Assembly: GCA_041658985.1 (NCBI GenBank) | Contig: JBAZZC010000002.1 | Location: 17,120-81,119, forward strand | Source of the DNA: Minisyncoccota bacterium | Lineage (GTDB): Bacteria > Patescibacteriota > Minisyncoccia > Phycocordibacterales > DATDWN01 | Direction: 5' to 3' | DNA length: 64,000 nt | Shown here: positions 3,409 through 45,147 of the stretch, one piece after another | Numbering within the stretch: position 1 is the stretch's first letter | How the letters are laid out: every line of letters begins with the position of its first letter | Notes under the pieces: generated by a model | Seen by the model: only the letters and a program-made list of their open reading frames with translations | The model's database searches: none | What the model was told of the DNA's origin: nothing | Made by a program: the position numbers and the translations under genes

Positions 3409-3648
3409 ATGGGCCTGACTTTTTCGGGTAATTGGAACAATCACGTTTTGGCGATGGAAGAGTGTTGTGCTGGTCGTGGGAGAATGGAGATCACTCTCTC
3501 CGACGACCAGGAGCGAAAGCTCCAAAACGGCGGACTTGTCTCCCTGAAGGAGCGAGTCTCGCCGAGTCTCGCAGAGTGTCTCTCCGTCCGTCCCCATTGG
3601 CTCTCCGCGCCAGCGGCGCTCGTGGTTGATGCGACGAAGTCGCGCTGA
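3409..3648 (+). CDS. GC-rich small protein, cassette copy 1 (about 80 aa); paralog of 3861..4034.
   Basis: GGAGGG SD 5 nt before the ATG. About 60% GC in a 33% GC context. Followed by its own terminator. The MEITLSDDQERKLQNGGLVSLKERVSPSLAECL segment aligns with MEIDIPTKEYRRLLDGGLDRLKRKCSPNLASRLL of the paralog. Confidence 0.45.
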   Translation: MGLTFSGNWNNHVLAMEECCAGRGRMEITLSDDQERKLQNGGLVSLKERVSPSLAECLSVRPHWLSAPAALVVDATKSR

Positions 3649-3688
3649 CCATAAGCACCTCGCACCTCGCACCTCGTACCTTCCCGAA

Positions 3689-3722
3689 GCCGCACCTCTG
3701 CACAGGTGCGGCTTTATTCTTT
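3689..3722 (+). terminator. Intrinsic terminator: GCCGCACCU-cugcac-AGGUGCGGC followed by UUUAUUCUUU.
   Basis: Perfect 9-bp GC stem plus a T-rich tail. Confidence 0.75.
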
Positions 3723-3860
3723 GAACATAAAAACTTATTGAAATAGATCATAAATGTGTTAAGGTACAAAGCGGAGGGCAAAACATTGCCAAACTAAAAG
3801 TTCTCTGGGGATTGGGACAGACTCATCCCTGTCATGGAGGAGTACGCAAACTCCAACAGG

Positions 3861-4034
3861 ATGATGGAAATTGATATTCCAACTAAGGAATATCGGCGAC
3901 TTCTCGACGGCGGGCTAGATAGGCTGAAGAGAAAGTGCTCGCCGAATCTGGCTTCTCGCCTGCTTTTGCAAGAGGCGTTTGTAGAGGCCAGTCCGTCTCT
4001 CCTAATCTTTCACAAACCACTGCCGACGAGGTAG
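3861..4034 (+). CDS. GC-rich small protein, cassette copy 2 (possibly RHH-like: short strand then helices); the leader ORF is frameshifted relative to copy 1.
   Basis: MMEIDIPTKEYRRLLDGGLDRLKRK... About 55% GC. It has its own terminator with the same stem as copy 1. Confidence 0.4.
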   Translation: MMEIDIPTKEYRRLLDGGLDRLKRKCSPNLASRLLLQEAFVEASPSLLIFHKPLPTR

Positions 4035-4043
4035 TCTTAAGGA

Positions 4044-4075
4044 GCCGCACCCGTGGAGAGGTGCGGCTTTGTTCG
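4044..4075 (+). terminator. Intrinsic terminator: GCCGCACC-cguggaga-GGUGCGGC followed by UUUGUUCG.
   Basis: 8-bp perfect stem; same stem sequence as the terminator at 3689. Confidence 0.7.
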
Positions 4076-4125
4076 TTGAAGATAAAATTAAGGATGTTAT
4101 AATTATTGTATTATTAATTAGCTTC

Positions 4126-4618: not shown

Positions 4619-4747
4619 ACGAGAAAATGTCAAAATAAAGCCAAAACAGTGTGGGGTTGTGACCTTGCATTGTTTTGTGTCTTAATGGTGTGGATAGTTT
4701 ACGGGTAATTACAAATGTTATATAATACATATATTAATATTAAATTA

Positions 4748-4884
4748 ATCCGCACACTAACATTGGTATTGTGTCTTCCGTTGCTACTGTAAGTTATCAA
4801 AGCAGAGTGATGGAAGATAAGGTAGTATAGATACTAAATCTAAACCAGACACAATTGCAACGATACCAATGTTAGTGTGCGGAT
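4748..4884 (+). repeat. Family A element A2: terminal inverted repeats ATCCGCACACTAACATTGGTAT / ATACCAATGTTAGTGTGCGGAT, with internal paired boxes tgtgtct/agacaca and cgttgc/gcaacg.
   Basis: 22-bp perfect terminal inverted repeats. It ends 10 nt before the ATG at 4895. Confidence 0.7.
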
Positions 4885-4894
4885 AAATAAAAAT

Positions 4895-5080: not shown

Positions 5081-5173
5081 AGACCGCTTTGTTTCTTGTG
5101 AGTAAAAAATGAATATGATAGAATACCTTAGACCTTAATTTTACTTGAAATAAGGAAAATTATTATTAACTTC

Positions 5174-5309
5174 ATCCGCACACTAACATTGGTATTGTGT
5201 CTCCTGTTGCTACTGTGAGTTATCAAACAGAGTAGTAGAAGATAAAAAGGTGTAGATACTAAACCTAAACCAGACACAATTGCAACGATACCAATGTTAG
5301 TGTGCGGAT
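5174..5309 (+). repeat. Family A element A3, near-identical to A2.
   Basis: Same terminal inverted repeats and internal boxes. It ends 15 nt before the ATG at 5325. Confidence 0.7.
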
Positions 5310-5324
5310 AAAAAAGATAAAGAT

Positions 5325-6029
5325 ATGGATAAGAACAAAATTATTTCTATCATAGTTGTAGTGGTTGTTGTTTTGGCTGTTGCTGGGTTTTTTATGTTTC
5401 GTGGAGACAAAATAAACAATCCAACAAGTGGTAATCCAGAAAGTGTGGCTACTGTAAACGGAGTAACCATTTCAAAAACAGTTTATGATGCACAACTTAC
5501 TTCAGCAATTTCTTCATACAAGACTCAAGGAATAGATGTAACAAAAGCAGATGAATTGGCTAAAATAAAGACTCAAGTTTTAAATAACCTCATAGACAAT
5601 GAATTAGTCAGTCAGGGTATTGTAAGCAGTGGAATTAAGGTTGATGACGCTGATATTGAAAAACAAATTCAAGATATCATAAAACAAACAGGAGGGGCAG
5701 ATAAGTTCCAAGTAGAACTTACTAAGGCCAATCTTACAGAGGCGCAACTTAGAGATAATATATCTAAGCAACTTACTCTTCAAAAATACTTAGAAGCTAA
5801 TGTAGATGTGAGCAAGATTACAGTAAGTGACACCGAAATTTCAGAGTTCTATAAACAATACAGTGACGCTCAAAAAACAGCTTCTTCTACCACAAAAGTT
5901 CCAGCACTTAAGGAATTAAGTGACCAAATAAAACAACAAATCACATCAAATAAGCAACAAGCTTTAATTAATGATTTTGTTGCTTCCTTACGAAGTAAAG
6001 CTCAAATAACAACATCTACGGCTTTATAG
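5325..6029 (+). CDS. Membrane-anchored SurA N-terminal-domain-like chaperone/PPIase-domain protein.
   Basis: N-terminal TM helix, then VATVNGVTISKTVYDAQL..., typical of the SurA_N/PpiD-like family. Confidence 0.45.
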   Translation: MDKNKIISIIVVVVVVLAVAGFFMFRGDKINNPTSGNPESVATVNGVTISKTVYDAQLTSAISSYKTQGIDVTKADELAKIKTQVLNNLIDNELVSQGIVSSGIKVDDADIEKQIQDIIKQTGGADKFQVELTKANLTEAQLRDNISKQLTLQKYLEANVDVSKITVSDTEISEFYKQYSDAQKTASSTTKVPALKELSDQIKQQITSNKQQALINDFVASLRSKAQITTSTAL

Positions 6030-12108: not shown

Positions 12109-12264
12109 ATGAGTAACCATCCCGTAGTAGTCACACTGGCTGTTCTTGCGATAGCACAGGCCATACCACTCATCGTGGTGGTTGCCCTGTCGTTTTTCCC
12201 ATGGGCAAAGAAGACACCGTCAGATTTCTTTTGTGATTTGTGGGAACTGATCACGAAAGGATGA
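12109..12264 (+). CDS. Small hydrophobic peptide, 51 aa, unannotated; GC-richer than its surroundings.
   Basis: AAAGGA SD then ATG. MSNHPVVVTLAVLAIAQAIPLIVVVALSFFPWAKKTPSDFFCDLWELITKG. Confidence 0.35.
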   Translation: MSNHPVVVTLAVLAIAQAIPLIVVVALSFFPWAKKTPSDFFCDLWELITKG

Positions 12265-12268
12265 TGAG

Positions 12269-12403
12269 ATGAAGCTGGTCTTCAGCGCCAAGAGAGCGAT
12301 TTGGCTTTTCGTCATTATCATGTTGCTCGGTTGTTGGCTGTCAACAACTGACACAATTGTGGGACAGCTCCTGCGATTGTTTATGTGGCTTGCTCTTCTC
12401 TAG
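12269..12403 (+). CDS. Second small hydrophobic peptide, 44 aa, immediately downstream.
   Basis: AAAGGAtgatgag then ATG. MKLVFSAKRAIWLFVIIMLLGCWLSTTDTIVGQLLRLFMWLALL. Confidence 0.3.
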   Translation: MKLVFSAKRAIWLFVIIMLLGCWLSTTDTIVGQLLRLFMWLALL

Positions 12404-19019: not shown

Positions 19020-20021
19020 ATGCGAATGACACAGATCTACGAATGGCTACGAATAATAAAAAATTATTTTTTTCCAGAACAGGTAAATAAAAAAAGGGCA
19101 ATAATCGCCTTTTTCATCGCGTTTGTTTTTGCCATGCTTTGTGTTTACATTTACAGACCGCCAACTGATTTTCCTGTGGGTCAAGTTATTACCATAGATT
19201 CTGGGGAGTCACTTCAAAGCATTACTAATATTCTATACAGTAAACACGTTATACGTTTTCCTGTCATTTTTCGTTCTACAGTTATTATATTAGGTGGAGA
19301 AAAGCGGGTTATCGCTGGGGATTATTTGCTTGATGAGCGTGAGGGGCCTGTTGATTTGGCTTACCGCTTGGTTAAAGGTCAATTTCATCTAGAACCCATA
19401 AAAGTTACTATTCCTGAAGGATGGAACGCCTTTCAAATAACCAACTACTTAGAAAAAAATATTTTGAATTTTGATAAGGCTCAATTTTTAACTCTTGCCA
19501 AGAATAATGAGGGTTATCTTTTTCCAGATACGTATTTTATTTCCAAGACAGCAAAACCTAATAATTTGATTGAAATAATGAAAAAAAATTTTGAACAAAA
19601 AATTAATTCTGTCTCTGGTATTGCCACCTCCACTCACAACCTAAAAGAAATTATCATAGTAGCCTCTATTTTAGAAGGAGAAGCTTTACCAAAAGACCGT
19701 AGTGTAGTAGCTGGTATTTTATGGAAAAGATTGGAGATAGGTATGCCTCTTCAAGTTGATTCCACATTTTCATATATAAATGGTAAAAATACATATGAAT
19801 TAACCCTGGATGATTTGAAGATTGATTCTCCTTACAATACCTATAAATACAAAGGTCTTCCCCCTGGACCAATTAGTAATCCTGGTTTAGAAGCTATAAT
19901 CAGTGCCATTATTCCAACAAAGACAAAGTACCTGTATTTTTTAACCGAAAAAGATGGCACTATTCACTATGCCAAAACATTTGAGGAGCATAAGAGAAAT
20001 AAAGAGTTGTATTTAAGGTAA
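19020..20021 (+). CDS. mltG: YceG/MltG-like endolytic transglycosylase, paralog 2.
   Basis: DSPYNTYKYKGLPPGPISNPGLEAI. Confidence 0.7.
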   Translation: MRMTQIYEWLRIIKNYFFPEQVNKKRAIIAFFIAFVFAMLCVYIYRPPTDFPVGQVITIDSGESLQSITNILYSKHVIRFPVIFRSTVIILGGEKRVIAGDYLLDEREGPVDLAYRLVKGQFHLEPIKVTIPEGWNAFQITNYLEKNILNFDKAQFLTLAKNNEGYLFPDTYFISKTAKPNNLIEIMKKNFEQKINSVSGIATSTHNLKEIIIVASILEGEALPKDRSVVAGILWKRLEIGMPLQVDSTFSYINGKNTYELTLDDLKIDSPYNTYKYKGLPPGPISNPGLEAIISAIIPTKTKYLYFLTEKDGTIHYAKTFEEHKRNKELYLR

Positions 20022-20090
20022 TCATAAATCTTTTTTTTCATCACAATCTTTTCAGAGCAACCTTAAGAAATTCCAGCGAATTTCTTAAGG

Positions 20091-20173
20091 CCAGTCCTCA
20101 CCCTCTAGCTGTCAAGAGCCCTCGCTTCGCTCAGGTCTATGACAGCACCATGCTAGAGGGTTGCGGGGTCTCT
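20091..20173 (+). repeat. Conserved ~85-nt stem-loop element, copy 1: outer stem ccctctagc/gctagaggg, inner stem TGTCA/TGACA around AGAGCCCTCGCTTCGCTCAGGTCTA, then ttgcggggtctc. Preceded by a 12-bp hairpin at 20061-20090.
   Basis: Aligns along its full length with the copies at 35396 and 39691; the outer stems covary. Confidence 0.65.
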
Positions 20174-20208
20174 GAAAAAATTATGATTCAACAAGATTTA
20201 TTCTTTGT

Positions 20209-25072: not shown

Positions 25073-25327
25073 AGTACTCTCATCATTATTTTTTCAAGAC
25101 GCGTATAAATCGCTGTTGCGATTTTACTATTCTCACTAATCAAGAAAACAATCTTCCTCAGTACTGGCCCTTTCGCAAACTCCTCGTTGAGTACAACTTC
25201 GTCAAACAGTGCTTCGGGCTGGCGTACTTCGTCGTTGTTTTCTAATTAGTTGCGAAATGTCTTGAAAAAACAATGATTCGAGTAAACTAATAACAAGATT
25301 TTATTTACTGATATTTTATGTAATAAT

Positions 25328-28514: not shown

Positions 28515-28535
28515 GGCACTTTGTGAACACATTTT

Positions 28536-28669
28536 ATCCGCACACTAACTTTAGTATTATCTCTCCGGTTGCTTCTATGGTTGGTTAGATAAAGTAACAG
28601 TAAAAAATAAGTGTGAATAGTAAATCTGTGTTTGACATAATGCAACGATATTAAAGTTAGTGTGCGGAT
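28536..28669 (+). repeat. Family A element A4 (variant arms ATCCGCACACTAACTTTAGTAT / ATATTAAAGTTAGTGTGCGGAT).
   Basis: Terminal inverted repeats with compensating changes on both arms relative to A2/A3. Confidence 0.65.
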
Positions 28670-28711
28670 GAATTTGCATAAACAAACTCATTTACGTTAC
28701 AATAAGGAGGA

Positions 28712-30758: not shown

Positions 30759-30799
30759 CGAAATAGCCAATGTTCTGCTACTATGTAGCTCGTTGATTA

Positions 30800-30937
30800 A
30801 TCCGAACACCAACTTTAGTATTGTGTCTTCCGTTGCTTCTTTTTATAAGTAATTAGCGGATTCAGTCAAGGTATAGATTTGGTTAGTAAATCTATATTTT
30901 GGACACAGTGCAACGATACTAAAGTTGGTGTTCGGAT
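30800..30937 (+). repeat. Family A element A5 (variant arms ATCCGAACACCAACTTTAGTAT / ATACTAAAGTTGGTGTTCGGAT); ends 9 nt before the infA ATG.
   Basis: Terminal inverted repeats with double compensatory changes. Confidence 0.65.
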
Positions 30938-30946
30938 AAAATTGTA

Positions 30947-35200: not shown

Positions 35201-35395
35201 TATTAGATATACTCAATATATTGAACTTTTGTGTATACGCGTTAGCTTTTCGCAGTCCCGTACTGAGCTTTGCTCTAGTACTGGGACAAGCAAGGCTCCT
35301 CAGTGGTCAAAACGTTAGTTTTCTTTTTCACAAAATCTCTTTCTCGTCATATCTTTTGAGAGACCGCTCATCCGCCCCTGCCGGCGGATTTGCTT

Positions 35396-35476
35396 AATCC
35401 TCGGCCATGACTTGTCAAGAGCCTTCGCTTCACTCAGGTCTATGACAAGACCATGCTCATGGCCTGCGGAGTCTCC
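35396..35476 (+). repeat. Conserved ~85-nt stem-loop element, copy 2 (outer stem ggccatga/tcatggcc; inner stem CTTGTCA/TGACAAG).
   Basis: Aligns with the copies at 20091 and 39691. Confidence 0.65.
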
Positions 35477-35506
35477 CAAAAGATACGACTTCGACGAGAT
35501 TTTGTT

Positions 35507-35528
35507 TTGCTACGATATATCGTAGCAA
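35507..35528. repeat. 22-bp perfect palindrome TTGCTACGATAT|ATCGTAGCAA.
   Basis: Read directly. Confidence 0.7.
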
Positions 35529-35587
35529 ATTAAGAAGTCTGTAGTTAAGCATGTAATTACTTATATCATATGTCATAACCGATATAT

Positions 35588-35615
35588 AATTTGGTACAAT
35601 ATATTGTACCAAATT
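35588..35615. repeat. 28-bp perfect palindrome AATTTGGTACAATA|TATTGTACCAAATT; a second copy lies at 36116-36143.
   Basis: Read directly; central ATAT. Confidence 0.75.
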
Positions 35616-35642
35616 AACAATAAGGTTAAGATAATTTAGAAT

Positions 35643-35673
35643 AGGAAAACCGCCAGTCGTGCTGGGCTGGCGG
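35643..35673 (-). terminator. Minus-strand intrinsic terminator CCGCCAG-cccagcacga-CUGGCGG followed by UUUUCC, serving the small ORF 35704..35955.
   Basis: 7-bp GC stem plus a T-run on the minus strand; near-identical copy at 36172-36204. Confidence 0.6.
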
Positions 35674-35703
35674 AATTCCGCACAGCGCCACGATGGCGGT
35701 GTG

Positions 35704-35955
35704 TTACTGTTCAAAAACAATTGAACCGTTGCCCCATTCCATTCTTGACCAGCCTGCGGCCAAGTAACGAGAGGTTAGCTTACGCTCCATCTCTGCACCT
35801 GGCCTCTTACGCTGGAATGTTAGGGCGATTGTTCTGTCGTGAGCGAAATCATTTCGGGCTACCCTAAGAGCCTCGTCAATGATACGTTCCCAACCCAGCT
35901 CCTCTAAGAGTTGGCTTGGTAGAGTGGAAAATAGTCGACTTGGGCCTACTGCCAT
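35704..35955 (-). CDS. GC-rich small protein, cassette II copy 1 (83 aa; C-terminal ...YLAAGWSRMEWGNGSIVFEQ).
   Basis: SD AGGAAAGAAGGTG then ATG; about 55% GC; own terminator; paralog at 36235..36474. Confidence 0.45.
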   Translation of the reverse strand: MAVGPSRLFSTLPSQLLEELGWERIIDEALRVARNDFAHDRTIALTFQRKRPGAEMERKLTSRYLAAGWSRMEWGNGSIVFEQ

Positions 35956-36115
35956 TACACACCTTCTTTCCTCATATAAAATATCATTTTCAAATCCATT
36001 GTCAACTAATTTTGAGTATTTAAAATTTCATATTAAACCATATTTCAATCTATGTTATAGCATAGATTATACAATCTACCACATTATAAGTAGTGAATTT
36101 AATTTAGTTGGATAT

Positions 36116-36143
36116 AATTTGGTACAGTATATTGTACCAAATT
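36116..36143. repeat. Second copy of the 28-bp palindrome (AATTTGGTACAGTATATTGTACCAAATT, 1 mismatch).
   Basis: Read directly. Confidence 0.75.
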
Positions 36144-36171
36144 GAAATCATATATAAATAATTTTGGCATA

Positions 36172-36204
36172 GGAAAAACCGCCAGTCGTGCTGGGCTGGC
36201 GGAA
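36172..36204 (-). terminator. Minus-strand intrinsic terminator, duplicate of the one at 35643-35673.
   Basis: Same CCGCCAG...CUGGCGG stem plus T-run. Confidence 0.6.
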
Positions 36205-36234
36205 TTCCGCACAGCGCCACGATGGCGGTTGTTG

Positions 36235-36474
36235 TCACTTGCTGAAGATGAGAGTTCCGTGATGACGGGTGACATTTGACCAACCCGTCGCTCTGTAACG
36301 GCGAATCAGTTCAGTGGTCACTCTTTGAGACGTGATCTGTCCCACGTGAACCTCGTACTGCTTGTTGTTCAAACCAAAACTGAGCATAAGTGCCCTGTCG
36401 ATCTCAGCCTCGATTTGATTGACTTCGAGCGTTTCCTCGGACGTCAATTCAAGATCCTTCGGTCCCAGTGCCAT
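36235..36474 (-). CDS. GC-rich small protein, cassette II copy 2 (79 aa; C-terminal ...RRYRATGWSNVTRHHGTLIFSK).
   Basis: TTGTTATAAT -10 box and AAGAAGGAGGTG SD before the ATG. Shares its C-terminal GW...(I/L)(V/I)F motif with the 35704 paralog. Confidence 0.45.
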   Translation of the reverse strand: MALGPKDLELTSEETLEVNQIEAEIDRALMLSFGLNNKQYEVHVGQITSQRVTTELIRRYRATGWSNVTRHHGTLIFSK

Positions 36475-36660
36475 GTGGCACCTCCTTCTTGTTGAATTAT
36501 AACATAGTTAGATTGTCTCGTCAAATAGTTTTGAAACTTCAAAAATTTATGTTAAAATAGCGTTATTATTTGAGTTTTGTTTGAAAATTTAGTAATTGGT
36601 TATTGTTTAGAAATTAGGTCAATTAGAAATTAGAAATTTGACTCTAAAATAAAGTAAAAC

Positions 36661-37257
36661 ATGGATACTAATGATGATAATGACAAAAAAATAGACCCCG
36701 AAGTAGAAATAGATACCGACCCTGGGGATGATGTGGTGTTTGAGGATAACACAGAAGTCACAGGGGCAGATTACAAGGCCAAAACAGACAAACTTCGTGC
36801 AAAAATAAAGGAATTAGAGAAGAAGAACGCAGAACTTTTGGATGGTTGGCAGAGAGATAAGGCAGATTTCATTAACGCCAGAAAAAGAGATGAGGAGCAG
36901 AAAATGGAGTTTTTGAAGTTCTCAAAAGCAGATATTATTGCTGAACTTCTTGCAGTTTTGGATTCATTTGAATCAGCTTTCAAAAATAAAGAGGCCTGGG
37001 AAAAAGCAGATAAAAACTGGAGAATGGGGGTTGAATACATTCACACACAGCTTATGAATATAATGACCCAAAACGGTTTAGCTGTTATAAATCCGATTGG
37101 AGAAAGGTACGACCACAACAGAGATGAGGCAGTAGAAACGGTAAAAGTTGACGACGAAAAAGATAATGATAAAATATTGGATGTGGTGCGAGTCGGATAT
37201 GAATTACACGGGAAAGAAATACGTGCACCAAAAGTTCGTGTTGGGCATTATTCGTAG
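36661..37257 (+). CDS. grpE: Nucleotide exchange factor GrpE.
   Basis: Coiled-coil N-terminus then ADFINARKR...AELLAVLDSFE...VGY.L.G.EIRAPKV. Confidence 0.85.
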   Translation: MDTNDDNDKKIDPEVEIDTDPGDDVVFEDNTEVTGADYKAKTDKLRAKIKELEKKNAELLDGWQRDKADFINARKRDEEQKMEFLKFSKADIIAELLAVLDSFESAFKNKEAWEKADKNWRMGVEYIHTQLMNIMTQNGLAVINPIGERYDHNRDEAVETVKVDDEKDNDKILDVVRVGYELHGKEIRAPKVRVGHYS

Positions 37258-37300
37258 CCATTCGTAGATTCGCATAATTTGTATATTTGTATCATATAAA

Positions 37301-37600
37301 ATGAACCAACTAACTAAGCCAATAGGTGAATATGTTGAAAGAATAGTCCGAGATAAGAACGGACAGCTGGTTCGTGCTACATTTTGCGTGTATGAGTGCG
37401 ACGGCCACATAAAAGCTCGCCTCATAAATGCTGAAATAATAAATGAATATTTACAAAAAACCGAGATACTAAAACTTGGCGGTTTAACCGCCAAATGGGT
37501 AAGGAACTATGTTGAATATGTTGGAGCAACAATTTCTCCATACTTTAGTTTAAATACATTATACTTCTCTGGCTCTAAGCCACGTGCACCTACAATTTAA
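37301..37600 (+). CDS. Hypothetical 99-aa protein inserted between grpE and dnaK, flanked by ATTCGTA heptamer repeats.
   Basis: ORF only; no recognised motif. Confidence 0.35.
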   Translation: MNQLTKPIGEYVERIVRDKNGQLVRATFCVYECDGHIKARLINAEIINEYLQKTEILKLGGLTAKWVRNYVEYVGATISPYFSLNTLYFSGSKPRAPTI

Positions 37601-37736
37601 GATACGAATGTAAAATTCAGGGTAATTGGCGAATGTCAACGAAAAATAATTAGTACAAATTCGTATACATTCGTAACTACCCCGATTTATTTTTCGTATC
37701 TTTTATATCTCATTATTTATTAATCTTATTAAATTT

Positions 37737-39635
37737 ATGTCTAAAACAATTGGAATAGACCTAGGAACAACGAACTCCGCCGTCGCCATTATGGAGGCGG
37801 GGAATCCCAAAATATTAGAAAATGCCGAAGGTGCTAGAACAACGCCATCTATTATTGCCATATCAAAAACTGGTGAAAGATTGGTTGGGCTTTTGGCAAA
37901 AAGACAGGCCGTAACAAACCCAAAGAACACAATCTTTGGAATCAAGAGATTTATTGGTCACACCTTTGACGACGAGGGTGTTCAGAAAGATAAGGCTGTT
38001 GTGCCCTTTGAGGTTCTTAAATCGGGAACAGGTGGAGTGAAAGTAAAAATGGCAGATAAAGAATACACGCCAGAGGAAATATCAGCCATGATTCTTTCAA
38101 AGATAAAAGCTGATGTTGAAGCAAAAATCGGCGAGAAGGTTTCTGATGCAATTATTACAGTGCCCGCATACTTTAACGATTCACAAAGACAAGCCACAAA
38201 AGACGCGGGAGCTATTGCTGGTTTGAATGTTTTGAGAATTATAAACGAACCTACGGCCGCAGCATTGGCTTATGGTTTTGACAAAGGCAAAAAAGAAGAA
38301 AAAATAGTTGTCTTTGATTTTGGTGGGGGAACATTTGATGTTTCCGTGCTTGAGGTGGGAGATGCTGTTGTAGAAGTGAAATCAACAGATGGAGATTCTC
38401 ACATGGGAGGTAAAGATATTGACCAAAAAATAATTAACTTTTTGGCTGATGAATTCAAAAAAGAGTCTGGTATTGATTTGAGAACAGATACTCTTGCACT
38501 TCAGAGACTTGATGAGGCAGCAGAAAAAGCGAAGATTGAACTTTCTACTGCAATGGAATCGGAAATAAATATTCCATTTATCACATCAGATAGCTCTGGT
38601 CCAAAACACTTACTTATTAAATTAAGTAGAGCAAAACTTGAGGAGCTAACTACCGAATTCATAGACAGGGCAATGTCTATTACAAAAAGAGCCATGGAGG
38701 CTTCTGGATTTGCAATATCTGACATTCATGAAGTTATCCTTGTCGGTGGTCAAACTCGTATGCCAAAAATGGCTGACAAAGTTAAGGAGTACTTTGGTAA
38801 GGAACCTAATAAGTCAATTAACCCAGACGAAGTTGTGGCTCTCGGAGCGGCTATACAGGGGGGTATTATGTCAGGGGACGTGAAAGATGTCCTACTTCTT
38901 GATGTTATACCGCTCTCGCTTGGTATAGAGACAATGGGAGGTGTTAGTACGAAGCTTGTGGAAAGAAATACAACCATTCCAGCCTCTAGGTCACAGGTTT
39001 TTTCAACCGCAGCCGATAATCAAACATCTGTGGAGATTCATATTGTCCAAGGTGAAAGAGCCATGGCAAATGATAACAAGTCTCTGGGGCGGTTCATTCT
39101 AGACGGGATTCCACCAGCACCACGAGGCATGCCACAAATTGAGGTTTTGTTTGATGTGGACGCAAATGGTATCTTGTCAGTTAAGGCAAAAGACAAAGCT
39201 ACAAGCAAGGAGCAATCAATTCGCATTGAAGCTCGTTCAGGTCTCTCAAAAGAAGATATTGAAAAAATGCAAAAGGATGCCGAGGCTCATGCGTCTGACG
39301 ACTTGAAGAAAAAAGATTTGGTTGAAGCGAAAAATATAGGTGAGCAACTTATTTACACAGCCGAGAAATCACTTCGTGATGCTGGTGACAAAGTTCCTAC
39401 AGAGTTACGAGCCTCAATTGAAAATAAAATTACAGATTTAAAGAAAGCAAATGGAGGTGAGGATATGGAGCAAATCAAAAAAACTACAACCGAGCTTTCT
39501 ACAGAGCTTTCTAAAGTAGGGGAGATAATAAACAAAGCAGCTCAAGAAGCAAATAAAACAGCTGAGGCGGGAGCTACGACAGCAGGGGAGGAGAAAGTTA
39601 GGGATGCGGATTTTGAGGAGAAGAAGGCGGAATAG
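37737..39635 (+). CDS. dnaK: Chaperone DnaK (Hsp70).
   Basis: [13 protein letters not shown]..., [10 protein letters not shown], 632 aa. Confidence 0.95.
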
Positions 39636-39690
39636 TTTTTAAATAATAACTCCTCAAAAACACTCGGCTTCTTCCTGCGGAAGCCTCGTT

Positions 39691-39775
39691 CAGTCCTCGA
39701 CCCCTCGTTGTCAAGAGCCTTCACTTCGTTCAGGTCTATGACAACACCAAGCTCGGGGTCTGCGGATGTTTCTCG
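39691..39775 (+). repeat. Conserved ~85-nt stem-loop element, copy 3 (outer stem gacccc/ggggtc; inner stem GTTGTCA/TGACAAC).
   Basis: Aligns with the copies at 20091 and 35396. Confidence 0.65.
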
Positions 39776-39825
39776 GGGGTATTATTCTAAAAACTATTTT
39801 AGAGAGTGAGAAATGATAAATACGC

Positions 39826-39870
39826 AAAAACCCACCAACGAAAGTAGACTAGTGCGTCCGATCCCAGATG
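39826..39870 (-). terminator. Minus-strand terminator (degenerate copy of the CCCACCAAC...GUUGGUGGG UUUUUGCG hairpin).
   Basis: One of three near-identical about 45-nt sequences (39826, 40113, 40462), each after a small minus-strand ORF. Confidence 0.5.
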
Positions 39871-39877
39871 ATGGGTG

Positions 39878-40048
39878 TTACAGATGTTTCTTTTGGAAGA
39901 GTGTCCAAGCCTCAACAAACTCCTGTTCAGTCAGGTGACTGTTCACCATTCTGAAGTTCGCCTTTATGCTTCGATTGATCTCTGACCAAATAAAGCGACA
40001 GACGATGGTTACTCCCATGAAAAATAGTCCGAGCATGAACCATTCCAC
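39878..40048 (-). CDS. Small single-TM protein, about 56 aa; cassette III copy a.
   Basis: AGGAGG SD about 6 nt before a GTG start; hydrophobic N-terminus; own terminator. Confidence 0.35.
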   Translation of the reverse strand: MEWFMLGLFFMGVTIVCRFIWSEINRSIKANFRMVNSHLTEQEFVEAWTLFQKKHL

Positions 40049-40112
40049 GATATTACCTCCTCTTAGGATAATAAAATATATTGATAATATAGCCAAGTGC
40101 AATAATTAAAAA

Positions 40113-40165
40113 AACGCAAAAACCCACCAACGAAAGTGGACTAGTGCGTCCAGTGCTGGTGGGGC
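40113..40165 (-). terminator. Minus-strand intrinsic terminator CCCCACCAGC...GUUGGUGGG followed by UUUUUGCG.
   Basis: 9-bp stem (1 G:U) plus T5. Confidence 0.65.
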
Positions 40166-40169
40166 AGTT

Positions 40170-40409
40170 TCAGGACTTGGGAAGATTGCGGATGTTGCAG
40201 GTTGTATATCCCATCACAATCTCAGCCTTGTACAGGTCATCTCGCTTTTTGAGTTGCCAGATCTTTGCTCCCAAATGGATCCACCCAAGATCGAATAGAT
40301 GTTTCTCAGCGCTGACGATACTCCTGAGACGCCCGCAATCACGAAGGTGAACGAAAATGAGACCATTGTACCTGCTTACTCGAATTGTCCAAAACCAATT
40401 ATGTGGCAT
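40170..40409 (-). CDS. GC-rich small protein, 79 aa; cassette III copy b (contains the FWTIRVS motif).
   Basis: ACCAGGAGGACAGTTCC then ATG; paralog of 40517..40792. Confidence 0.45.
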   Translation of the reverse strand: MPHNWFWTIRVSRYNGLIFVHLRDCGRLRSIVSAEKHLFDLGWIHLGAKIWQLKKRDDLYKAEIVMGYTTCNIRNLPKS

Positions 40410-40461
40410 GGAACTGTCCTCCTGGTACTGATAATACATTAGAAATAATGAATGTCAATTA

Positions 40462-40510
40462 CGCAAAAACCCACCAACGAAAGTGGACATTTGCGTCCGT
40501 GTTGGTGGGG
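40462..40510 (-). terminator. Minus-strand intrinsic terminator CCCCACCAAC-loop-GUUGGUGGG followed by UUUUUGCG.
   Basis: Perfect 9-10-bp stem plus T5. Confidence 0.7.
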
Positions 40511-40516
40511 TATGAT

Positions 40517-40792
40517 TCAAGCCACTTGCTTTGGGAGTTCAGAGATGTCGAGTTGATGTCGAACCTCGATAAGGATAGCACTATACACGATGCTACCGAT
40601 TTCGAGTCGCCACGGCCTCAGGACTGGTTTATTAGTGTACACACCATCAGCTTTCTGCCAGCCGTTGGTCTTTAGAAGATTTGTGGCTGAATCAAGATGG
40701 TTTTCGTCAAACAACCCGAAATCTCCATGTCGATAACGCAGACTACCCGTTATCATCGACACACGAATTGTGTAAAACTTCGTGGCTTTCAT
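40517..40792 (-). CDS. GC-rich small protein, 91 aa; cassette III copy c (contains the FYTIRVS motif).
   Basis: GGAGG SD 7 nt before the ATG. Aligns with the 40170 paralog at F.TIRVS....G....H..D.G and a GW motif. Confidence 0.45.
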   Translation of the reverse strand: MKATKFYTIRVSMITGSLRYRHGDFGLFDENHLDSATNLLKTNGWQKADGVYTNKPVLRPWRLEIGSIVYSAILIEVRHQLDISELPKQVA

Positions 40793-41008
40793 AGAATGGC
40801 CTCCAACTGGAAATCATATCAGATAATTGTTGAATGTCAAGTATACTTATCATAAAAAAATCATATAATAAGCACTACAATAGAACTTTCAGATTTAAGC
40901 CAAGATCAAGGCGGGATGAGAAAATGTGAGGAGCCTTACTTGTCGTAAGGTGACGAGAATTTTTGAAATTCCAACGCAGATATTGGCCAAATGTGGAAGT
41001 TATAACAT

Positions 41009-42095
41009 TATGGCAAAAGATTACTACCAAACATTAGGCATTGATAAAAAAGCCTCAAAAGACGAAATCAAAAAGGCCTTTAGGACTTTGGCGCACAAGT
41101 ATCATCCTGACAAAAAGACTGGAGATGATGCTAAATTCAAGGAAATCAACGAAGCCTACTCCATACTGTCAGATGATGGTAAAAGAGCTCAATATGACCA
41201 GTTTGGGAGCAATTTTGGTCAATCTGGAGCTGGGTATGGTGGACAGCAAGGAGCTGGTTTTGGTGACTTTGACTTCTCACAGTTTACCCAAGGCGGACCA
41301 GCCTCAGGCTGGGAGTTTGATTTTGGTGATTTATTTGGTAATGCCTTTGGAGGTACTCGTCGTAAGCAAGCCAAAAGGGGGCGAGATATTTCAATAGACA
41401 TTGAACTCTCATTTGAGGAATCGGTTTTTGGCGTGGAAAGAACAGTATTGTTAAATAAAGTTTCAAAATGTGATGTCTGCGAAGGAACTGGGGCAGAAAA
41501 GGGCAGTGAGATGATTAAATGTTCAACTTGTAATGGCAAGGGCCAGATAAGAGAAGTAAAGAGAACCTTCTTTGGACAGTTTGAAACAATGAGCACATGC
41601 GAAACTTGTCTGGGAGCAGGAAAAATTCCAAAAGCAAAATGTTCAGTTTGTCGTGGGCAGGGAATATTGAAAAAAGAAAGTGAAATCAAAGTAAAAATCC
41701 CAGCTGGAATTGACAGTGGGGAAATGATGCGCCTAACAGGCGCAGGTGAAGCTGTTTCTGGTGGCCAAACAGGGGACTTGTATATCAAAATTTATGTTAA
41801 AAAACATCCAACATTCAGAAAAGACGGACACAATCTCTTAATGGACCTAAATATTAAACTCACTGATGCACTTCTCGGCGGTGAGGAGACAATAAATACA
41901 TTAGACGGGGCTTTAAAAGTAAAAATACCGGAGGGAGTAACTCACGGAGAAACTTTACGAATAAAATCTAGAGGGGTTCCATATGACAGAGGTTATCGTG
42001 GAGATATTTTAATAAAACTCCATATCTCCATACCAAAAAAACTTTCCAAAGAAACAAGGCGTGTGATTGAATCTCTCAAAAAAGAAGGAATATAG
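41009..42095 (+). CDS. dnaJ: Chaperone DnaJ.
   Basis: MAKDYYQTLGIDKKASKDEIKKAFRTLAHKYHPD is the J domain. A G/F-rich region follows, then four CxxCxG zinc-finger repeats. Confidence 0.9.
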
Positions 42096-42144: not shown

Positions 42145-43245
42145 ATGAAATCAAAAATATTTTTAGTTTTCACTCTAATTTTATTTCTAGTTGTTTTTAC
42201 GACAAATCTCAACGCTTCTACCACCATTAGTACAAATATAAATACAGGAGGTTCGCTGACAGTTAGTAGCACAGGTATTTTTGCTGGGAATGTTGGTATT
42301 GGCACAACCACTCCTGCAACTTCGCTTAGTATAGTCGCTACCCCATCAACGACTAGTTATGTAGATGGTATAGCCACAACTATTTATCCTGCTAATCTTT
42401 TAAGTATTACCGATACCACTGTTTCTGCTGTAAGGAATGCCGGTAGTCTTATTGATTATATCGCCAATCCTCCATCTAATCCTGGTGCTAAAAGATATTA
42501 TGGTCAGGAAGTTACATTATCAACACCCTCAAGCAATGAACAGAGTATGACGTCAGCTTCTTTGACAGGTATCTTTTTAAATGCTTATCATCAAGGTTCT
42601 GGGAGTATATCAAACGTAACTAGTCTTAATGGAACCGCAACTGTTTCTGGAAGTGGGAATGTGGTGGCTGTAAATGGACTTTCTGGAACCGCAACTGTTT
42701 CTGGAAGTGGGAATGTGACTTCTTCTGCAAATGGTCTTACTGGAACCGTAACTTTTACTGGAAACGGTACAAAAGTAACCGCAAGAGGAGTATTTGCTAC
42801 GTTAGTTAATACTGGCTCTGGCACAATAACAAATCTTATCGGAAATGATTTAACGGTAGTTAGTACTGGAGGAACGATAACTAACCTTTATGGTTTTAGG
42901 TTTGATCCTTTATCTAGCTCCTCAGGCACAATTAATAATACTTATGGTTTTTATGTGGGTGATATAACTTCAGGCACCCAAGCTAATACCCCATATTCCT
43001 TTTACGCCTCTGACGCTGGGGCATATAATTACTTTGCCGGCAATACTGGTATCGGGACAACTACCCCACAGACTAAACTTCATGTTTCCTCTGGTGCAAG
43101 TGCCACGACCACAGTAACTGTAGGAGAACTTGGACTGACTACTAGTAAGGCATGTGTTAATATGAATAGAGACGATGGAAATCCAGCAAGTTTCTTTATA
43201 AATGCTGCTGGAACCATAGTTGTTGAACTTAATTATTGTAGATAA
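42145..43245 (+). CDS. Secreted surface protein, family member 1 (signal/anchor, GNVGIGTTTP-type repeats, variable Gly/Ser/Thr-rich core, conserved C-terminal module ending NYCR).
   Basis: N- and C-terminal regions are near-identical at DNA level to 43993..45147. Confidence 0.6.
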   Translation: MKSKIFLVFTLILFLVVFTTNLNASTTISTNINTGGSLTVSSTGIFAGNVGIGTTTPATSLSIVATPSTTSYVDGIATTIYPANLLSITDTTVSAVRNAGSLIDYIANPPSNPGAKRYYGQEVTLSTPSSNEQSMTSASLTGIFLNAYHQGSGSISNVTSLNGTATVSGSGNVVAVNGLSGTATVSGSGNVTSSANGLTGTVTFTGNGTKVTARGVFATLVNTGSGTITNLIGNDLTVVSTGGTITNLYGFRFDPLSSSSGTINNTYGFYVGDITSGTQANTPYSFYASDAGAYNYFAGNTGIGTTTPQTKLHVSSGASATTTVTVGELGLTTSKACVNMNRDDGNPASFFINAAGTIVVELNYCR

Positions 43246-43271
43246 GTATTTATTTTAATCATTATATAGAT

Positions 43272-43976
43272 ATGAATAAAAATTTTTTCTTACTTAGTGT
43301 ATCATTTCTGTTTATCACTATTTTTATTTCCACAAGTCTTTATGCTTCAACCACCATCAGTACAGATATAAATACAGATGGAAATATCAGTATCGGGACA
43401 ACTACTCCATGGGCAATGTTTAGTGTGAATCCGAACGGAATTGGTAATGGTCCAGAGTTTGCAATCGGGTCATCAAGTGCAACGCACTTGGTAGTAACTA
43501 ATTCAGGCAACGTCGGCATCGGAGTGACGAGTCCATTGTCTAAGTTAAGTGTTGGTGGAGCAGGATTAGCCGGTGCAGCTATCTATGGCGGCGGTAACAC
43601 CTACGGTGTGGATGGTGTTGGTACAGCGTATGGTGGTCTCTTTACTGGTACTGCAGGTATTGGTGTATATGGCAGTGGTACTACATATGGTGTTTATGGT
43701 AATGGTGCTGGTTCTGGTGTCGGTGGATATTTTAGCTCTTTTTCTGGCTATGCCTTAATAACAAACAGTGGCAACGTCGGAGTTGGAACAACTACCCCCC
43801 AGACTAAACTTCATGTTTCCTCTGGTGCAAGTGCCACAACTACAGTAACTGTAGGAGAACTTGGACTGACTACTAGTAAGGCATGTGTTAATATGAATGC
43901 ATCAGATGGTTCGGCCGTCAGTTTTTATTTTAATGCAGCACATGCAATGGTAATTGAGTCAAATTACTGTCGTTAA
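43272..43976 (+). CDS. Secreted surface protein, family member 2 (short; shares the signal and C-terminal module).
   Basis: C-terminal ...GNVGVGTTTPQTKLHVSSGASATTTVTVGELGLTTSKACVNMN...NYCR. Confidence 0.55.
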   Translation: MNKNFFLLSVSFLFITIFISTSLYASTTISTDINTDGNISIGTTTPWAMFSVNPNGIGNGPEFAIGSSSATHLVVTNSGNVGIGVTSPLSKLSVGGAGLAGAAIYGGGNTYGVDGVGTAYGGLFTGTAGIGVYGSGTTYGVYGNGAGSGVGGYFSSFSGYALITNSGNVGVGTTTPQTKLHVSSGASATTTVTVGELGLTTSKACVNMNASDGSAVSFYFNAAHAMVIESNYCR

Positions 43977-43992
43977 TTTTATATTAATAAAC

Positions 43993-45147
43993 ATGAATAC
44001 CAAGAGAATTTATTTTATAGTTTTAGGTGTGTTTTTGTTTGTTACTATTTTTATTTTCACAAGTCTTTATGCTTCTACCACCATTAGTACAAATATAAAT
44101 ACAGGAGGTTCGCTGACAGTTAGTAGCACAGGTATTTTTGCTGGGAATGTTGGTATTGGCACGACTACCCCTGCAACTTCACTCAGTATAGTCGCTACCC
44201 CATCAACCACTAGTTATGTAGATGGAATAGCCTCAACTTATTACCCCACAAATCTTTTAAGTATTACTGATACCGCTGTTTCTGCTGTAAATAATACTGG
44301 TATCCTTATTGACTATATAGTTAATCCTTCATCTAATCCTGGCAGTAAAACTTATAGAGGCCAGGTAATTACACTATCAACACCTTCAAGCAATGAACAG
44401 AGTGTGGCGTCTGCTTCTTTGAGAGGTATCCAATCAAATGTTAAACATCAAGGTTCTGGAAATTTATCAAGTTTAATAGGCATAACACTTAATGCAGATT
44501 TCACTGGTTCAGGCACTATTGCGAACCAATATGGTACTAGTGGAAGTATAACCGTTACTGGGAGTGGAAATGTGACAAATCTATATGGCAATGCTTTTTC
44601 AGAAACCGTTACTGGGAGTGGAAATATAAGCAATCTTAAAGGAGAATCAATCACAATAACTCATACTGGTAATGGGAATGTAACAACTCTATCAGGAACT
44701 CTTACCATAATAACTCATACTGGCTCTGGCACAATAACATCATTTGATGGAAGTAGATTAACTCTAGTTAATACTGTCGGGACAATAAACACTGCTTATG
44801 GTTTTAGATTTGAAAGTTTGACTGGTGCAGGCACAGTTGGTAACACTTATGCATTTTATGTAGGTGATATAACTGCCGGCACGCAAACCAATACCCCATA
44901 TTCCTTTTACGCCTCTGACGCTGGGGCATATAATTACTTTGCCGGCAATACTGGTATCGGGACAACTACCCCCCAGACTAAACTTCATGTTTCCTCTGGT
45001 GCAAGTGCCACAACTACAGTAACTGTAGGAGAACTTGGACTGACTACTAGTAAGGCATGTGTTAATATGAATCAAGCAGATGGCAGTGCCGGAAGTTTTT
45101 ATCTGGCAGGAGGTACTGTAAAAGTTGAAGATAATTATTGTAGATAA
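43993..45147 (+). CDS. Secreted surface protein, family member 3.
   Basis: Same termini as member 1 with a different middle segment. Confidence 0.6.
   Translation: MNTKRIYFIVLGVFLFVTIFIFTSLYASTTISTNINTGGSLTVSSTGIFAGNVGIGTTTPATSLSIVATPSTTSYVDGIASTYYPTNLLSITDTAVSAVNNTGILIDYIVNPSSNPGSKTYRGQVITLSTPSSNEQSVASASLRGIQSNVKHQGSGNLSSLIGITLNADFTGSGTIANQYGTSGSITVTGSGNVTNLYGNAFSETVTGSGNISNLKGESITITHTGNGNVTTLSGTLTIITHTGSGTITSFDGSRLTLVNTVGTINTAYGFRFESLTGAGTVGNTYAFYVGDITAGTQTNTPYSFYASDAGAYNYFAGNTGIGTTTPQTKLHVSSGASATTTVTVGELGLTTSKACVNMNQADGSAGSFYLAGGTVKVEDNYCR

Follow-up and report, generated by a model that had tools for sequence, protein, structure and literature searches.

The window, by which we mean the whole 64-kb stretch of DNA analyzed here, comes from the genome of an ultra-small bacterium of the Parcubacteria (Zambryskibacteria-like CPR) and contains a dnaK operon with small genes on the opposite strand. 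On the plus strand, grpE (36661 to 37257; Pfam GrpE, E = 6e-35) is followed by orf99 (37301 to 37600), encoding 99 aa, and dnaK (37737 to 39635; Pfam HSP70, E = 1e-247). Directly 3′ of dnaK lies a long stem-loop (SL) element of ∼160 nt (39640 to 39800, plus strand; repeat family D4), followed by three minus-strand mini-genes of 59, 79, and 91 aa (c1, c2, and c3) and then by dnaJ (41010 to 42095, plus strand; Pfam DnaJ, DnaJ_CXXCXGXG, and DnaJ_C). The locus is embedded in housekeeping genes, which include those for ribosomal proteins and aminoacyl-tRNA synthetases, rpoA, and cell-wall genes. Pfam matches and ORF coordinates agree with the gene order of the original prediction, and its view of the dnaK operon as interrupted by autonomous units on the minus strand with a common terminator holds. 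The dnaK-dnaJ spacer is 1374 bp long, and the ENA gene call overlooked all three mini-genes in it. The description of orf99 as an orphan did not survive: it has no Pfam family, and tblastn finds homologs (29 to 74% identity) at the same position in ∼40 of 80 related loci.

The SL element has further copies at 20040 to 20200 and 35335 to 35510, and 24 of its 43 base pairs show compensatory changes among the six copies compared; it has no Rfam match. Immediately 5′ of the dnaJ start is a 118-nt hairpin (40884 to 41001, plus strand; −40.6 kcal/mol, z = −4.75), which is not present in the related loci L003 and L004 (related dnaK loci are given here as L numbers). The putative GGAAG ribosome-binding site of dnaJ sits within its 3′ arm, and dnaJ probably has a promoter of its own. 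Rfam searches, at the gathering threshold over the whole window and at E ≤ 1 over 35.2 to 41.05 kb, returned nothing except one tRNA and one chance sRNA match.

Each mini-gene has a GGAGG ribosome-binding site. The c1 ORF (39878 to 40057, minus strand; 59 aa) starts with GTG after AGGAGG and has an N-terminal hydrophobic helix (WFMLGLFFMGVTIVCRFIW) and a polar tail. It is unrelated to c2 (40170 to 40409, minus strand; 79 aa) and c3 (40517 to 40792, minus strand; 91 aa), paralogs whose proteins are 26% identical and which we assign to a GW small-protein family; the fold predicted for c3 is β-β-α-β-β. With its ortholog P0013, c3 shares 58% identity at a dN/dS of ∼0.18; judged from this sequence comparison, c3 is a genuine coding gene under purifying selection. 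All three ORFs look foreign in their third codon positions: GC3 is 0.55 (c1), 0.53 (c2), and 0.47 (c3), against 0.275 ± 0.036 for 39 long ORFs of the genome, or 5 to 8 SD higher, and overall GC is modestly higher (0.43 to 0.46 versus 0.357).

A second, sister array (locus II; 35646 to 36524, minus strand; repeat family D16) lies between rpsI and grpE. Its two ORFs, b1 (35704 to 35955, minus strand) and b2 (36235 to 36474, minus strand), are paralogs, and its two minus-strand terminators (35646 to 35700 and 36175 to 36229; 55 nt each) are 100% identical to each other. L015 has a b2 homolog at the same position. In all, the window has three or more arrays of self-contained mini-genes rich in GC; arrays similar to the one between dnaK and dnaJ occupy the S9-grpE spacer and other intergenic sites.

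Database searches say little about these proteins. Scans of c1, c2, c3, b1, b2, and orf99 against Pfam, PHROGs, and PADLOC found nothing. In a word-indexed homology search, c3 retrieved only itself, c1 nothing, and the family profile only its own seeds. The AF2 model of c3 is of low confidence (pLDDT 68) and had no match with E < 0.03 in PDB or BFVD. The helix-GW-β-hairpin motif led us to consider a HicA-like toxin, an idea that we rejected: at E ≤ 10, 10 family members had no Pfam match, HicA_toxin included. Grouping of the c1-type membrane peptides into a single family was likewise not supported, the only link found being a weak match between c1 and L008.

Predicted promoters and terminators of the units

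Each ORF is followed by a predicted terminator on the minus strand: T1 after c1 (39816 to 39875), T2 after c2 (40108 to 40167), and T3 after c3 (40455 to 40513), scoring 66, 84, and 79 bits, respectively, with a covariance model. Their near identity, noted in the original prediction, is real: the copies (repeat family D11) are 85 to 92% identical over 48 nt around an invariant 24-nt core, ACGCAAAAACCCACCAACGAAAGT, which occurs exactly three times in the 64 kb (39822, 40114, and 40461) and not once in 100 shuffles. The minus-strand transcripts fold into a 9-bp outer stem and a 4-bp inner hairpin ahead of U5 (−20 to −25 kcal/mol), and so have the GC-rich hairpin and U-tract of Rho-independent terminators; read on the plus strand, the hairpins have no U-tract. 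Across the alignment, 90% of cells are paired. Where only one side of a pair has changed, which happens seven times, the result is always a G·U wobble able to pair in the minus-strand transcript alone, and the G/U-rich 3′ arm does not vary. The wobble-only changes and the invariant arm suggest that selection acts on the terminator at the RNA level. Some unpaired positions (ACUUUC, and GCGU 3′ of the U-tract) are more conserved than a plain terminator requires.

Promoter-like sites precede the ORFs, also on the minus strand: P1 for c1 (40068 to 40096; TTGGCT-17-TATTAT, 9/12 consensus positions), P2 for c2 (40431 to 40458; TTGACA-16-TATTAT, 11/12), and P3 for c3 (40813 to 40840; TTGACA-16-TG-TATGAT, 11/12). 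P2, P3, and the b2 promoter of locus II are the sole three 11/12 matches across the 7.5 kb scanned, and the scan found no plus-strand promoter at or above threshold facing the cassettes. A block upstream of P1, AATTATTGCACTTG, is common to cassette promoters in L083 and L084, and P3 lies within a block of ∼75 nt with orthologous sequence in L003 and L004. P1 to P3 and T1 to T3 are predictions from consensus matches and folding, and the units are probably expressed.

In two sister genomes, unrelated ORFs end in this same terminator, and the 38-nt core of T2 is identical to both L084 terminators. Because neither the loop variants of the terminator nor the promoter types follow ORF type, the units are mosaic. 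The covariance model found no additional copies in 41 sources, the terminator was not found in viral contigs, and the whole spacer went unmatched in phage and plasmid collections. An exact-match collection scan placed the motif on a 505-kb sister contig in the dnaK-dnaJ spacer only. A dispersed MITE- or REP-like hairpin was therefore rejected, since the exact core occurs in only two metagenome-collection contigs and is confined to the spacer on the 505-kb contig. We also rejected a DNA-uptake-sequence pair, the motif occurring just three times in 64 kb, and the notion that repeated terminators are a general feature of multi-ORF spacers, as L005, L018, L082, and others have none.

The dnaK-dnaJ spacer in related genomes

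The small-protein family was initially recognized by eye inside the spacers. Its members, related to c2 and c3, occupy the antisense strand of the dnaK-dnaJ spacer in 11 or more other Parcubacteria genomes, among them those represented by L004, L005, L014, L018 (two copies), L030, L032, L033, L082, and L084. An unbiased scan covering 1.84 billion representatives yielded two new small-protein matches, and both are encoded between dnaJ and dnaK. Statistical support for placing c2 and c3 in this wider family is modest: a profile-profile comparison (hhalign) of the window subfamily with 12 other members gave P = 78% and E = 1.8e-5, and leave-one-out E-values were 0.006 and 0.48. In the other genomes, GC3 of family members is mostly above that of the neighboring dnaK. 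To explain why a family of supposedly long residence has such high GC3, our guesses are repeated horizontal replacement or GC-biased gene conversion. A literature search for antisense genes in dnaK-dnaJ spacers returned nothing relevant.

Spacer content and size vary greatly. Over 66 loci, the spacer measures 12 to 2632 bp; in the clade defined by DnaK identity of ≥83%, it has a median of 488 bp and falls below 150 bp in just 3 of 30 cases. In these spacers, ORFs with a preceding Shine-Dalgarno motif are mostly antisense (40, versus 11 sense). Among the closest relatives, the number of cassettes ranges from zero in L003 through one each in L004 and L083 and two in L084 to three in the window, and cassette-free L003 retains the orthologous promoter block. 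Many members of the clade in which the spacer is short (L003, L022, L026) lack the family, and in some other spacers unrelated antisense ORFs take its place. Between the window and the sister genomes, dnaK and dnaJ DNA is only 72 to 78% identical. In yet another genome, an ortholog of c3 (58% identical) with the same 3′ half of the terminator adjoins a DsbA-like gene, suggesting that the unit can relocate.

These comparisons qualify what had been expected of the locus. A contiguous dnaK-dnaJ pair was anticipated in relatives; this holds for the close relative L003 and for many that are more distant, where 12 to 100 bp separate the two genes, but many other genomes also carry antisense cassettes. 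The arrangement is ancestral, because many related genomes have c2/c3 homologs on the antisense strand of this spacer; it is variable, however, and not fixed. The condition that the original prediction named for its own refutation, an ancestral and fixed insertion in relatives, holds in part. The idea of a mobile unit carrying its own terminator gains from the copy beside the DsbA-like gene, but the spacer appears to be a long-standing hot spot and not the site of a recent insertion.

Evolution of the array

We regard as probable that the dnaK-dnaJ spacer is an old, fast-changing hot spot for accessory genes, with moron-like units reshuffled via their promoter and terminator modules. Small accessory genes antisense to the chaperone operon would be long-term residents of this genome. 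The window would hold three monocistronic units, each with its own σ70-type promoter, a strong ribosome-binding site, an ORF of 59 to 91 aa, and a strong intrinsic terminator that may shield the units from each other and block antisense read-through into dnaK. On this reading, c2 and c3 would be old paralogs of a fast-evolving β-β-α-β-β family whose residence in the spacer dates back to the base of the clade, and c1 a single-pass membrane peptide unrelated to them. The array would evolve by gain, loss, and reshuffling of units, the last most likely through homologous recombination via the conserved modules; selection on the RNA hairpin may keep the terminator nearly invariant while ORFs diverge fast or are replaced.

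The original prediction offered recent duplication as its first option, that is, tandem duplication of one promoter-ORF-terminator unit. Three head-to-tail units in one orientation with near-identical terminators would fit, as would the paralogy of c2 and c3, but we consider this history very improbable. DNA identity among the three ORFs is 0.47 to 0.55, the expectation for shuffled sequence being 0.50; c2 and c3 have diverged to the extent given above, and c1 is unrelated. Moreover, the same terminator variants occur in the sister genomes, with dnaK and dnaJ as divergent as noted, and the modules are therefore older than those splits. An integron-like site-specific system, in which the hairpin is an attC-like recombination site and cassettes are captured and excised as units, is quite unlikely. 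As in integron cassette arrays and CALIN, arrays of variable length contain unrelated or divergent ORFs in one orientation, each ORF has at its 3′ end an imperfect but conserved inverted repeat, here with an …AAC/GTT… core, and the c3 ortholog carries the same 3′ module at another locus. The repeat itself, however, fails attC criteria: it is ∼45 nt long (attC sites, 57 to 141 nt, with L boxes and an unpaired central spacer), and its perfect 9-bp stem is uninterrupted, has no bulged or extrahelical bases, and runs into U5, as is typical of a terminator. The putative R″ and R′ boxes (CACCAAC and GTTGGTG) each match RYYYAAC/GTTRRRY at 5 of 7 positions, and copy 1 (CCCATCATC) has no AAC. Each cassette has its own promoter, the window ORFs include no integrase or other tyrosine recombinase (the only recombinase is a serine recombinase 38 kb away), and the exact motif is absent from the rest of the 64 kb and confined to the spacer on the sister contig.

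Two further readings concern what the units might do. Toxin-antitoxin-like or otherwise selfish modules (e.g., type I toxins) could owe their persistence to a position between essential genes. Small membrane peptides do recur here (c1, the 54-aa L084-B, and small ORFs of L008 and L048), the tandem units have conserved noncoding ends and vary in copy number, and homologous peptides occupy different islets, the L048 spacer peptide matching window positions 12109 to 12264 (E = 1e-5). Yet among the three cassette products only c1 is both small (<60 aa) and hydrophobic in the manner of such toxins, c2 and c3 being soluble, and c1 has no detectable homologs; with no PADLOC, Pfam, or PHROG matches and neither an antisense RNA gene nor a partner antitoxin identifiable, we think this unlikely. 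Alternatively, the family might be tied to the chaperone operon, either as a DnaK/DnaJ modulator resembling an assembly factor of the DafA type or through convergent antisense transcription that uncouples expression of dnaJ from dnaK. The antisense position between dnaK and dnaJ is kept in many genomes, the antisense promoter is retained in L003 even without an ORF, and in the window a 5′ hairpin of dnaJ spans the putative ribosome-binding site. Against such a tie stand the clade members with short spacers and no family member, the unrelated antisense ORFs in other spacers, the c3 ortholog at a different locus, the similar arrays in the S9-grpE spacer and other intergenic sites, and a sequence turnover too quick for a conserved DnaK partner; we hold it to be doubtful.

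The hot-spot reading with moron-like units has precedents. Phage morons are autonomous promoter-ORF-terminator units between conserved genes (the Hendrix/Juhala definition), and the cassettes resemble them in having their own promoter and intrinsic terminator, a small accessory ORF, atypical composition, and conserved flanking genes. They differ in lying among housekeeping genes on a bacterial chromosome, not in a prophage, and in having no matches in phage or viral collections; they are also antisense to the flanking operon, and the family has long resided at one position. Chromosomal hot spots of horizontal transfer and genomic islets occur between core genes, and the dnaK-dnaJ spacer shares their core flanks, variable content and size (12 to 2632 bp), and atypical composition. 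Unlike them, it is tiny (0.3 to 2.6 kb, with ORFs of 40 to 150 aa) and lies inside an otherwise cotranscribed operon; a single protein family recurs in it, and regulatory modules are common to the units. These observations overturn no current concept, and they provide a clearly bounded case of evolution by hot spots and moron-like units in an unusual host.

Although CPR/Patescibacteria genomes are extremely reduced, a mini-gene array persists clade-wide in the middle of the essential dnaK-dnaJ operon while its sequence changes fast. If expressed, the small proteins would constitute a compact, uncatalogued accessory gene pool, largely missed by gene callers and protein databases, and may mediate interactions with hosts or phages; our guess at their function is an accessory part in interactions that involve the surface, the host, or phages. 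A bolder idea, to which we give little credence, is that the promoter and terminator modules are portable docking sequences, with small genes swapped between hot spots and genomes by recombination at the terminator hairpin. Were it true, the system would be an integron analog, integrase independent or served by a not-yet-recognized recombinase, that feeds rapidly changing small proteins to ultrareduced genomes.

CIRCE and the ATTCGTA motif

The original prediction reported no CIRCE element upstream of grpE or dnaK, and the wider search extends this to the entire window: CIRCE (TTAGCACTC-N9-GAGTGCTAA) has no site with ≤5 mismatches in the 64 kb, and the window ORFs include no hrcA. Across more than 80 related dnaK loci (942 kb), there are likewise no sites with ≤3 mismatches. 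The absence is thus clade-wide and, because it is true of all 80+ loci, independent of the split operon. A literature search on HrcA/CIRCE in CPR returned nothing relevant. The window shares the grpE-dnaK-dnaJ core order with HrcA/CIRCE operons of the Bacillus type (hrcA-grpE-dnaK-dnaJ) but differs from them in having neither hrcA nor CIRCE, in the rpsI gene before grpE, in the additional orf99, and in an upstream ATTCGTA tandem.

That tandem, ATTCGTA-N3-ATTCGTA-N1-ATTCGCA (37250 to 37274, plus strand), lies upstream of orf99 and is a candidate operator or promoter element; a second one, ATTCGTA-N3-ATTCGTA (37659 to 37675, plus strand), lies ∼65 bp upstream of dnaK. Together with the clade-wide absence of CIRCE, its recurrence offers a concrete candidate for heat-shock gene control in Parcubacteria. 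The same motif occurs 47 to 75 bp upstream of orf99, dnaK, or dnaJ in L009, L014, L018, and L034, and it is also found upstream of dnaJ in L083 and L084.

The dnaK locus and its three antisense units

The window comes from the chromosome of a Patescibacteria (CPR) organism, of the Parcubacteria/Zambryskibacteria type. The best 80 DnaK loci among GTDB species genomes all come from Parcubacteria/Paceibacterota MAGs, and the window DnaK is also present on a 236-kb ENA metagenome contig, which differs by one indel across the 21.9 kb compared. The neighbors of dnaK are housekeeping genes (upstream, S13-S11-S4-RpoA-L17-L13-S9), and aminoacyl-tRNA synthetases, cell-wall genes, and ScpAB are found elsewhere in the window. 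Phage genes, tyrosine integrase, and HrcA are absent from the window, and its sole recombinase, a serine recombinase at 76-1473, lies 38 kb from the cassettes. The gene for this large protein (Resolvase, Recombinase, and Zn_ribbon_recom) extends into a tRNA-Ala gene on the minus strand (1411-1484), and 76-1484 may mark the border of an integrated element. After dnaJ, three adjacent family-less ORFs of 366, 234, and 397 aa (42145-45147) carry long repeats, both internal and shared with one another (families D1, D2, and D6 to D8), and are probably paralogous repeat-rich surface proteins.

Pfam places grpE (36661-37257; GrpE), dnaK (37737-39635; Hsp70/DnaK), and dnaJ (41010-42095; DnaJ) on the plus strand; the original observation of three minus-strand cassettes splitting the dnaK operon was confirmed. 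The 99-aa ORF between grpE and dnaK (orf99, 37301-37600) has no Pfam family, but it is not the orphan it was taken for, as about 40 genomes have a recognizable copy. In the 1374-bp dnaK-dnaJ spacer, a ∼160-nt stem-loop element comes first, followed by the three units, a ∼75-nt block carrying the promoter of the third unit, and a 118-nt hairpin. In each unit, a predicted sigma-70-like promoter and a GGAGG-type ribosome-binding site precede the ORF, and a terminator follows it. The minus-strand ORFs are c1 (39878-40057; 59 aa, one hydrophobic helix), c2 (40170-40409; 79 aa), and c3 (40517-40792; 91 aa). The c3 and c2 promoters match 11/12 consensus positions; only one other such match exists in 7.5 kb, that of b2, an ORF of the neighboring array. 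GC at third codon positions (GC3) is 0.47 to 0.55 in the cassettes versus 0.275±0.036 (maximum, 0.36) in 39 long ORFs. The ENA gene call of the source contig (L001, 11900-13273) has no genes between dnaK and dnaJ; c3 and c2 are called in the Logan assembly, and c1 is called nowhere. These missed calls show how such mini-genes escape protein databases.

Diverged ORFs and near-invariant terminators

Read on the minus strand, the terminator is a 4-bp inner hairpin enclosed by a 9-bp outer stem (CCCACCAAC/GUUGGUGGG), with U5 and GCGU following in that order. The three copies are 85 to 92% identical across 48 nt, in line with the ∼90% over ∼45 nt reported originally, and the terminator segments of the units share 0.71 to 0.82 identity across about 70 nt. 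The 24-nt core occurs exactly three times in the window versus zero times in shuffles. The recent duplication suggested by this likeness did not hold for the cassettes: DNA identity between the ORFs (0.47 to 0.55) is at the shuffled level (expected, 0.50; maximum, 0.54), the c2 and c3 proteins are 26% identical, and c1 is unrelated to both. We also rejected the terminator as a dispersed element, as no further copies were found elsewhere in the window, in 80 GTDB loci, in viral contigs, or, in an exact 24-mer scan, outside the dnaK-dnaJ spacer on a 505-kb sister contig.

Each of the seven stem substitutions alters one partner only and yields G·U or U·G, pairing solely in minus-strand RNA, and all fall in the C/A-rich 5′ arm, with the G/U-rich 3′ arm invariant. 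Since transitions in the C/A arm create wobble pairs and those in the G/U arm break pairs, selection on an RNA hairpin predicts this pattern. The one-sided wobbles thus support a putative true transcript-level terminator, and hairpin selection largely accounts for the difference from the fast-evolving ORFs. It does not explain the invariance of unpaired ACUUUC and GCGU or the 100% identity of the terminators in the neighboring array (locus II); gene conversion or an extra recognition role is possible.

Locus II (35580-36530, minus strand), in the rpsI-grpE interval, likewise combines diverged ORFs and near-invariant terminators. Its two paralogous ORFs (83 and 79 aa; GC3, 0.45 and 0.59) are 30% identical; after each lies a 55-nt terminator, identical between the copies, with a 28-nt perfect palindrome, AATTTGGTACAATATATTGTACCAAATT, behind it. 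A b2 homolog lies in the same rpsI-grpE spacer of a relative (L015). A third array, locus I (3340-4080, plus strand), fits as well: local GC content reaches 64%, and the two mini-genes there are paralogous (79 and about 57 aa), each with its own promoter, GGAGG site, and terminator, GCCGCACC-loop-GGTGCGGCTTT. Between ychF and a cupin gene, two GC3-rich ORFs (12109-12264 and 12269-12403) encode small membrane peptides of 51 and 44 aa. A peptide from the dnaK-dnaJ spacer of L048 is a homolog of the first (E=1e-5), and thus such mini-genes occupy different islets in different genomes.

Both c2 and c3 belong to a recurrent spacer family (GW) with a β-hairpin, a "G.F..…A…L…GW" helix, a second β-hairpin, and a "(D/E)LP" tail. 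Pairwise evidence for the family is weak; most members are significant in leave-one-out tests, and profile-profile comparison of {c3, P0013, c2} with 12 other members gave a probability of 78% (E=1.8e-5). An exhaustive HMMER scan of 1.84 billion representatives revealed three new small members, of which P0008 and P0011 are encoded antisense between dnaJ and dnaK. P0013, which adjoins a DsbA-like gene, is a c3 ortholog (58% identical), and their dN/dS of about 0.18 shows that c3 is a real gene under purifying selection. The P0013 unit keeps its TTGACT/TG-ATAAT promoter, ribosome-binding site, and terminator 3′ half (CGTTGGTGGGTTTTTGCGT); the inner hairpin differs. The AF2 model of c3 is β-β-α-β-β (pLDDT, 68), with no significant structural neighbor found; no cassette protein matched Pfam, PHROG, or PADLOC families, and the searches yielded no c1 homolog.

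The dnaK-dnaJ spacer among relatives

The S9-grpE-orf99-dnaK-dnaJ order is conserved among relatives, with dnaK-dnaJ spacers of 12 to 2632 bp. The spacer is short in the more distant relatives (17/36 are <150 bp), in many of which dnaK and dnaJ are contiguous as originally expected, and long in the clade with DnaK identity of ≥83% (median, 488 bp; 3/30 are <150 bp). Spacer ORFs preceded by Shine-Dalgarno sequences are antisense in 40 cases versus sense in 11 and belong to several small families; many spacers are GC-richer than their own genomes. In L003, the closest GTDB relative, the spacer measures 104 bp and keeps the orthologous promoter block but has no ORF; in L004, the block is followed by one family member. 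Cassette numbers of 0, 1, 1, 2, and 3 among close relatives would, in the simplest reading, indicate an ancestral yet unstable islet.

An exact 24-mer scan of a metagenome collection returned only two contigs, both with the motif in the dnaK-dnaJ spacer: L083, with one unit (a membrane-type ORF with an in-frame stop), and L084, with two (one encoding a family member of 71 aa, the other a two-helix peptide of 54 aa). Their dnaK and dnaJ DNA is only 72 to 78% identical to the window, and a 38-nt terminator core is identical among the window c2 unit and both L084 units. Loop variants (CACTAG versus AAATG) and promoter types (AATTATTGCACTTGAC versus TTGACATTCA) are independent of ORF type and position, which makes the units mosaics.

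Integron-like, toxin-antitoxin-like, and chaperone-linked readings of the cassettes each fail at least one tested criterion or have no positive evidence. We commit only to architecture and evolutionary mode: the cassettes would be accessory mini-genes, autonomous, insulated, and antisense, at a hot spot prone to recombination. The islet is real but mostly of a familiar kind, a small, variable set of moron-like accessory genes; what is noteworthy is its location inside the dnaK operon of a CPR clade, its new, position-conserved small-protein family, and its unusually high GC3.

CIRCE and other intergenic elements

The lack of CIRCE was confirmed: there are no sites in the window at ≤5 mismatches and none at ≤3 mismatches in the 942 kb surrounding 80+ related dnaK genes, and the absence is clade-wide. 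A tandem heptamer, ATTCG[TC]A-N3-ATTCG[TC]A (10-bp spacing), lies upstream of orf99 (37250-37274) and dnaK (37659-37675), and in L009, L014, L018, and L034 it is found 47 to 75 bp upstream of orf99, dnaK, or dnaJ. Among 10 occurrences in 914 kb (versus ∼0.03 expected by chance, by our estimate), 7 are in spacers upstream of these genes; L083 and L084 carry it upstream of dnaJ. The heptamer is a candidate lineage-specific heat-shock operator or promoter element in place of CIRCE. A further, inverted copy in the window lies where a YceG/MltG-like gene starts (19021-19054). The window dnaJ lacks the heptamer and has instead a 118-nt plus-strand hairpin (40884-41001; −40.6 kcal/mol, z=−4.75) that ends 9 nt before the start codon, with a putative GGAAG ribosome-binding site in its 3′ arm. 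This hairpin is single-copy in the window and missing from L003 and L004; it may be an element that was inserted, or a 5′ UTR resembling an RNA thermometer.

The branched, ∼140- to 160-nt stem-loop element that follows dnaK (39640-39800) is also present at 20040-20200 and 35335-35510 and in relatives (L003:2185-2375; L024:4376-4560 and 5770-5990), inserted in different spacers in different genomes. Its conserved loops are GTCCTC, TGTCAAGAGCC, GGTCTATGACA, and CTGCGG; 24/43 pairs show compensatory changes, G·U pairs are on the plus strand, and the orientation is always that of the flanking genes. The element has no Rfam match and is a candidate for a novel structured RNA or 3′-UTR element of Parcubacteria. 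Another intergenic element, a ∼190-nt long hairpin (25085-25275; z=−5), follows a peptidase M3 gene; a 91%-identical copy lies directly 3′ of dnaK in L084 (5586-5747), where the window has the stem-loop element. A ∼150-nt inverted-repeat family with arms ATCCGCACACTAACATTGGTAT/ATACCAATGTTAGTGTGCGGAT has four window copies (4733-4890, 5159-5315, 28521-28673, and 30785-30941), and a related element adjoins the c3 ortholog at L085:590-740.
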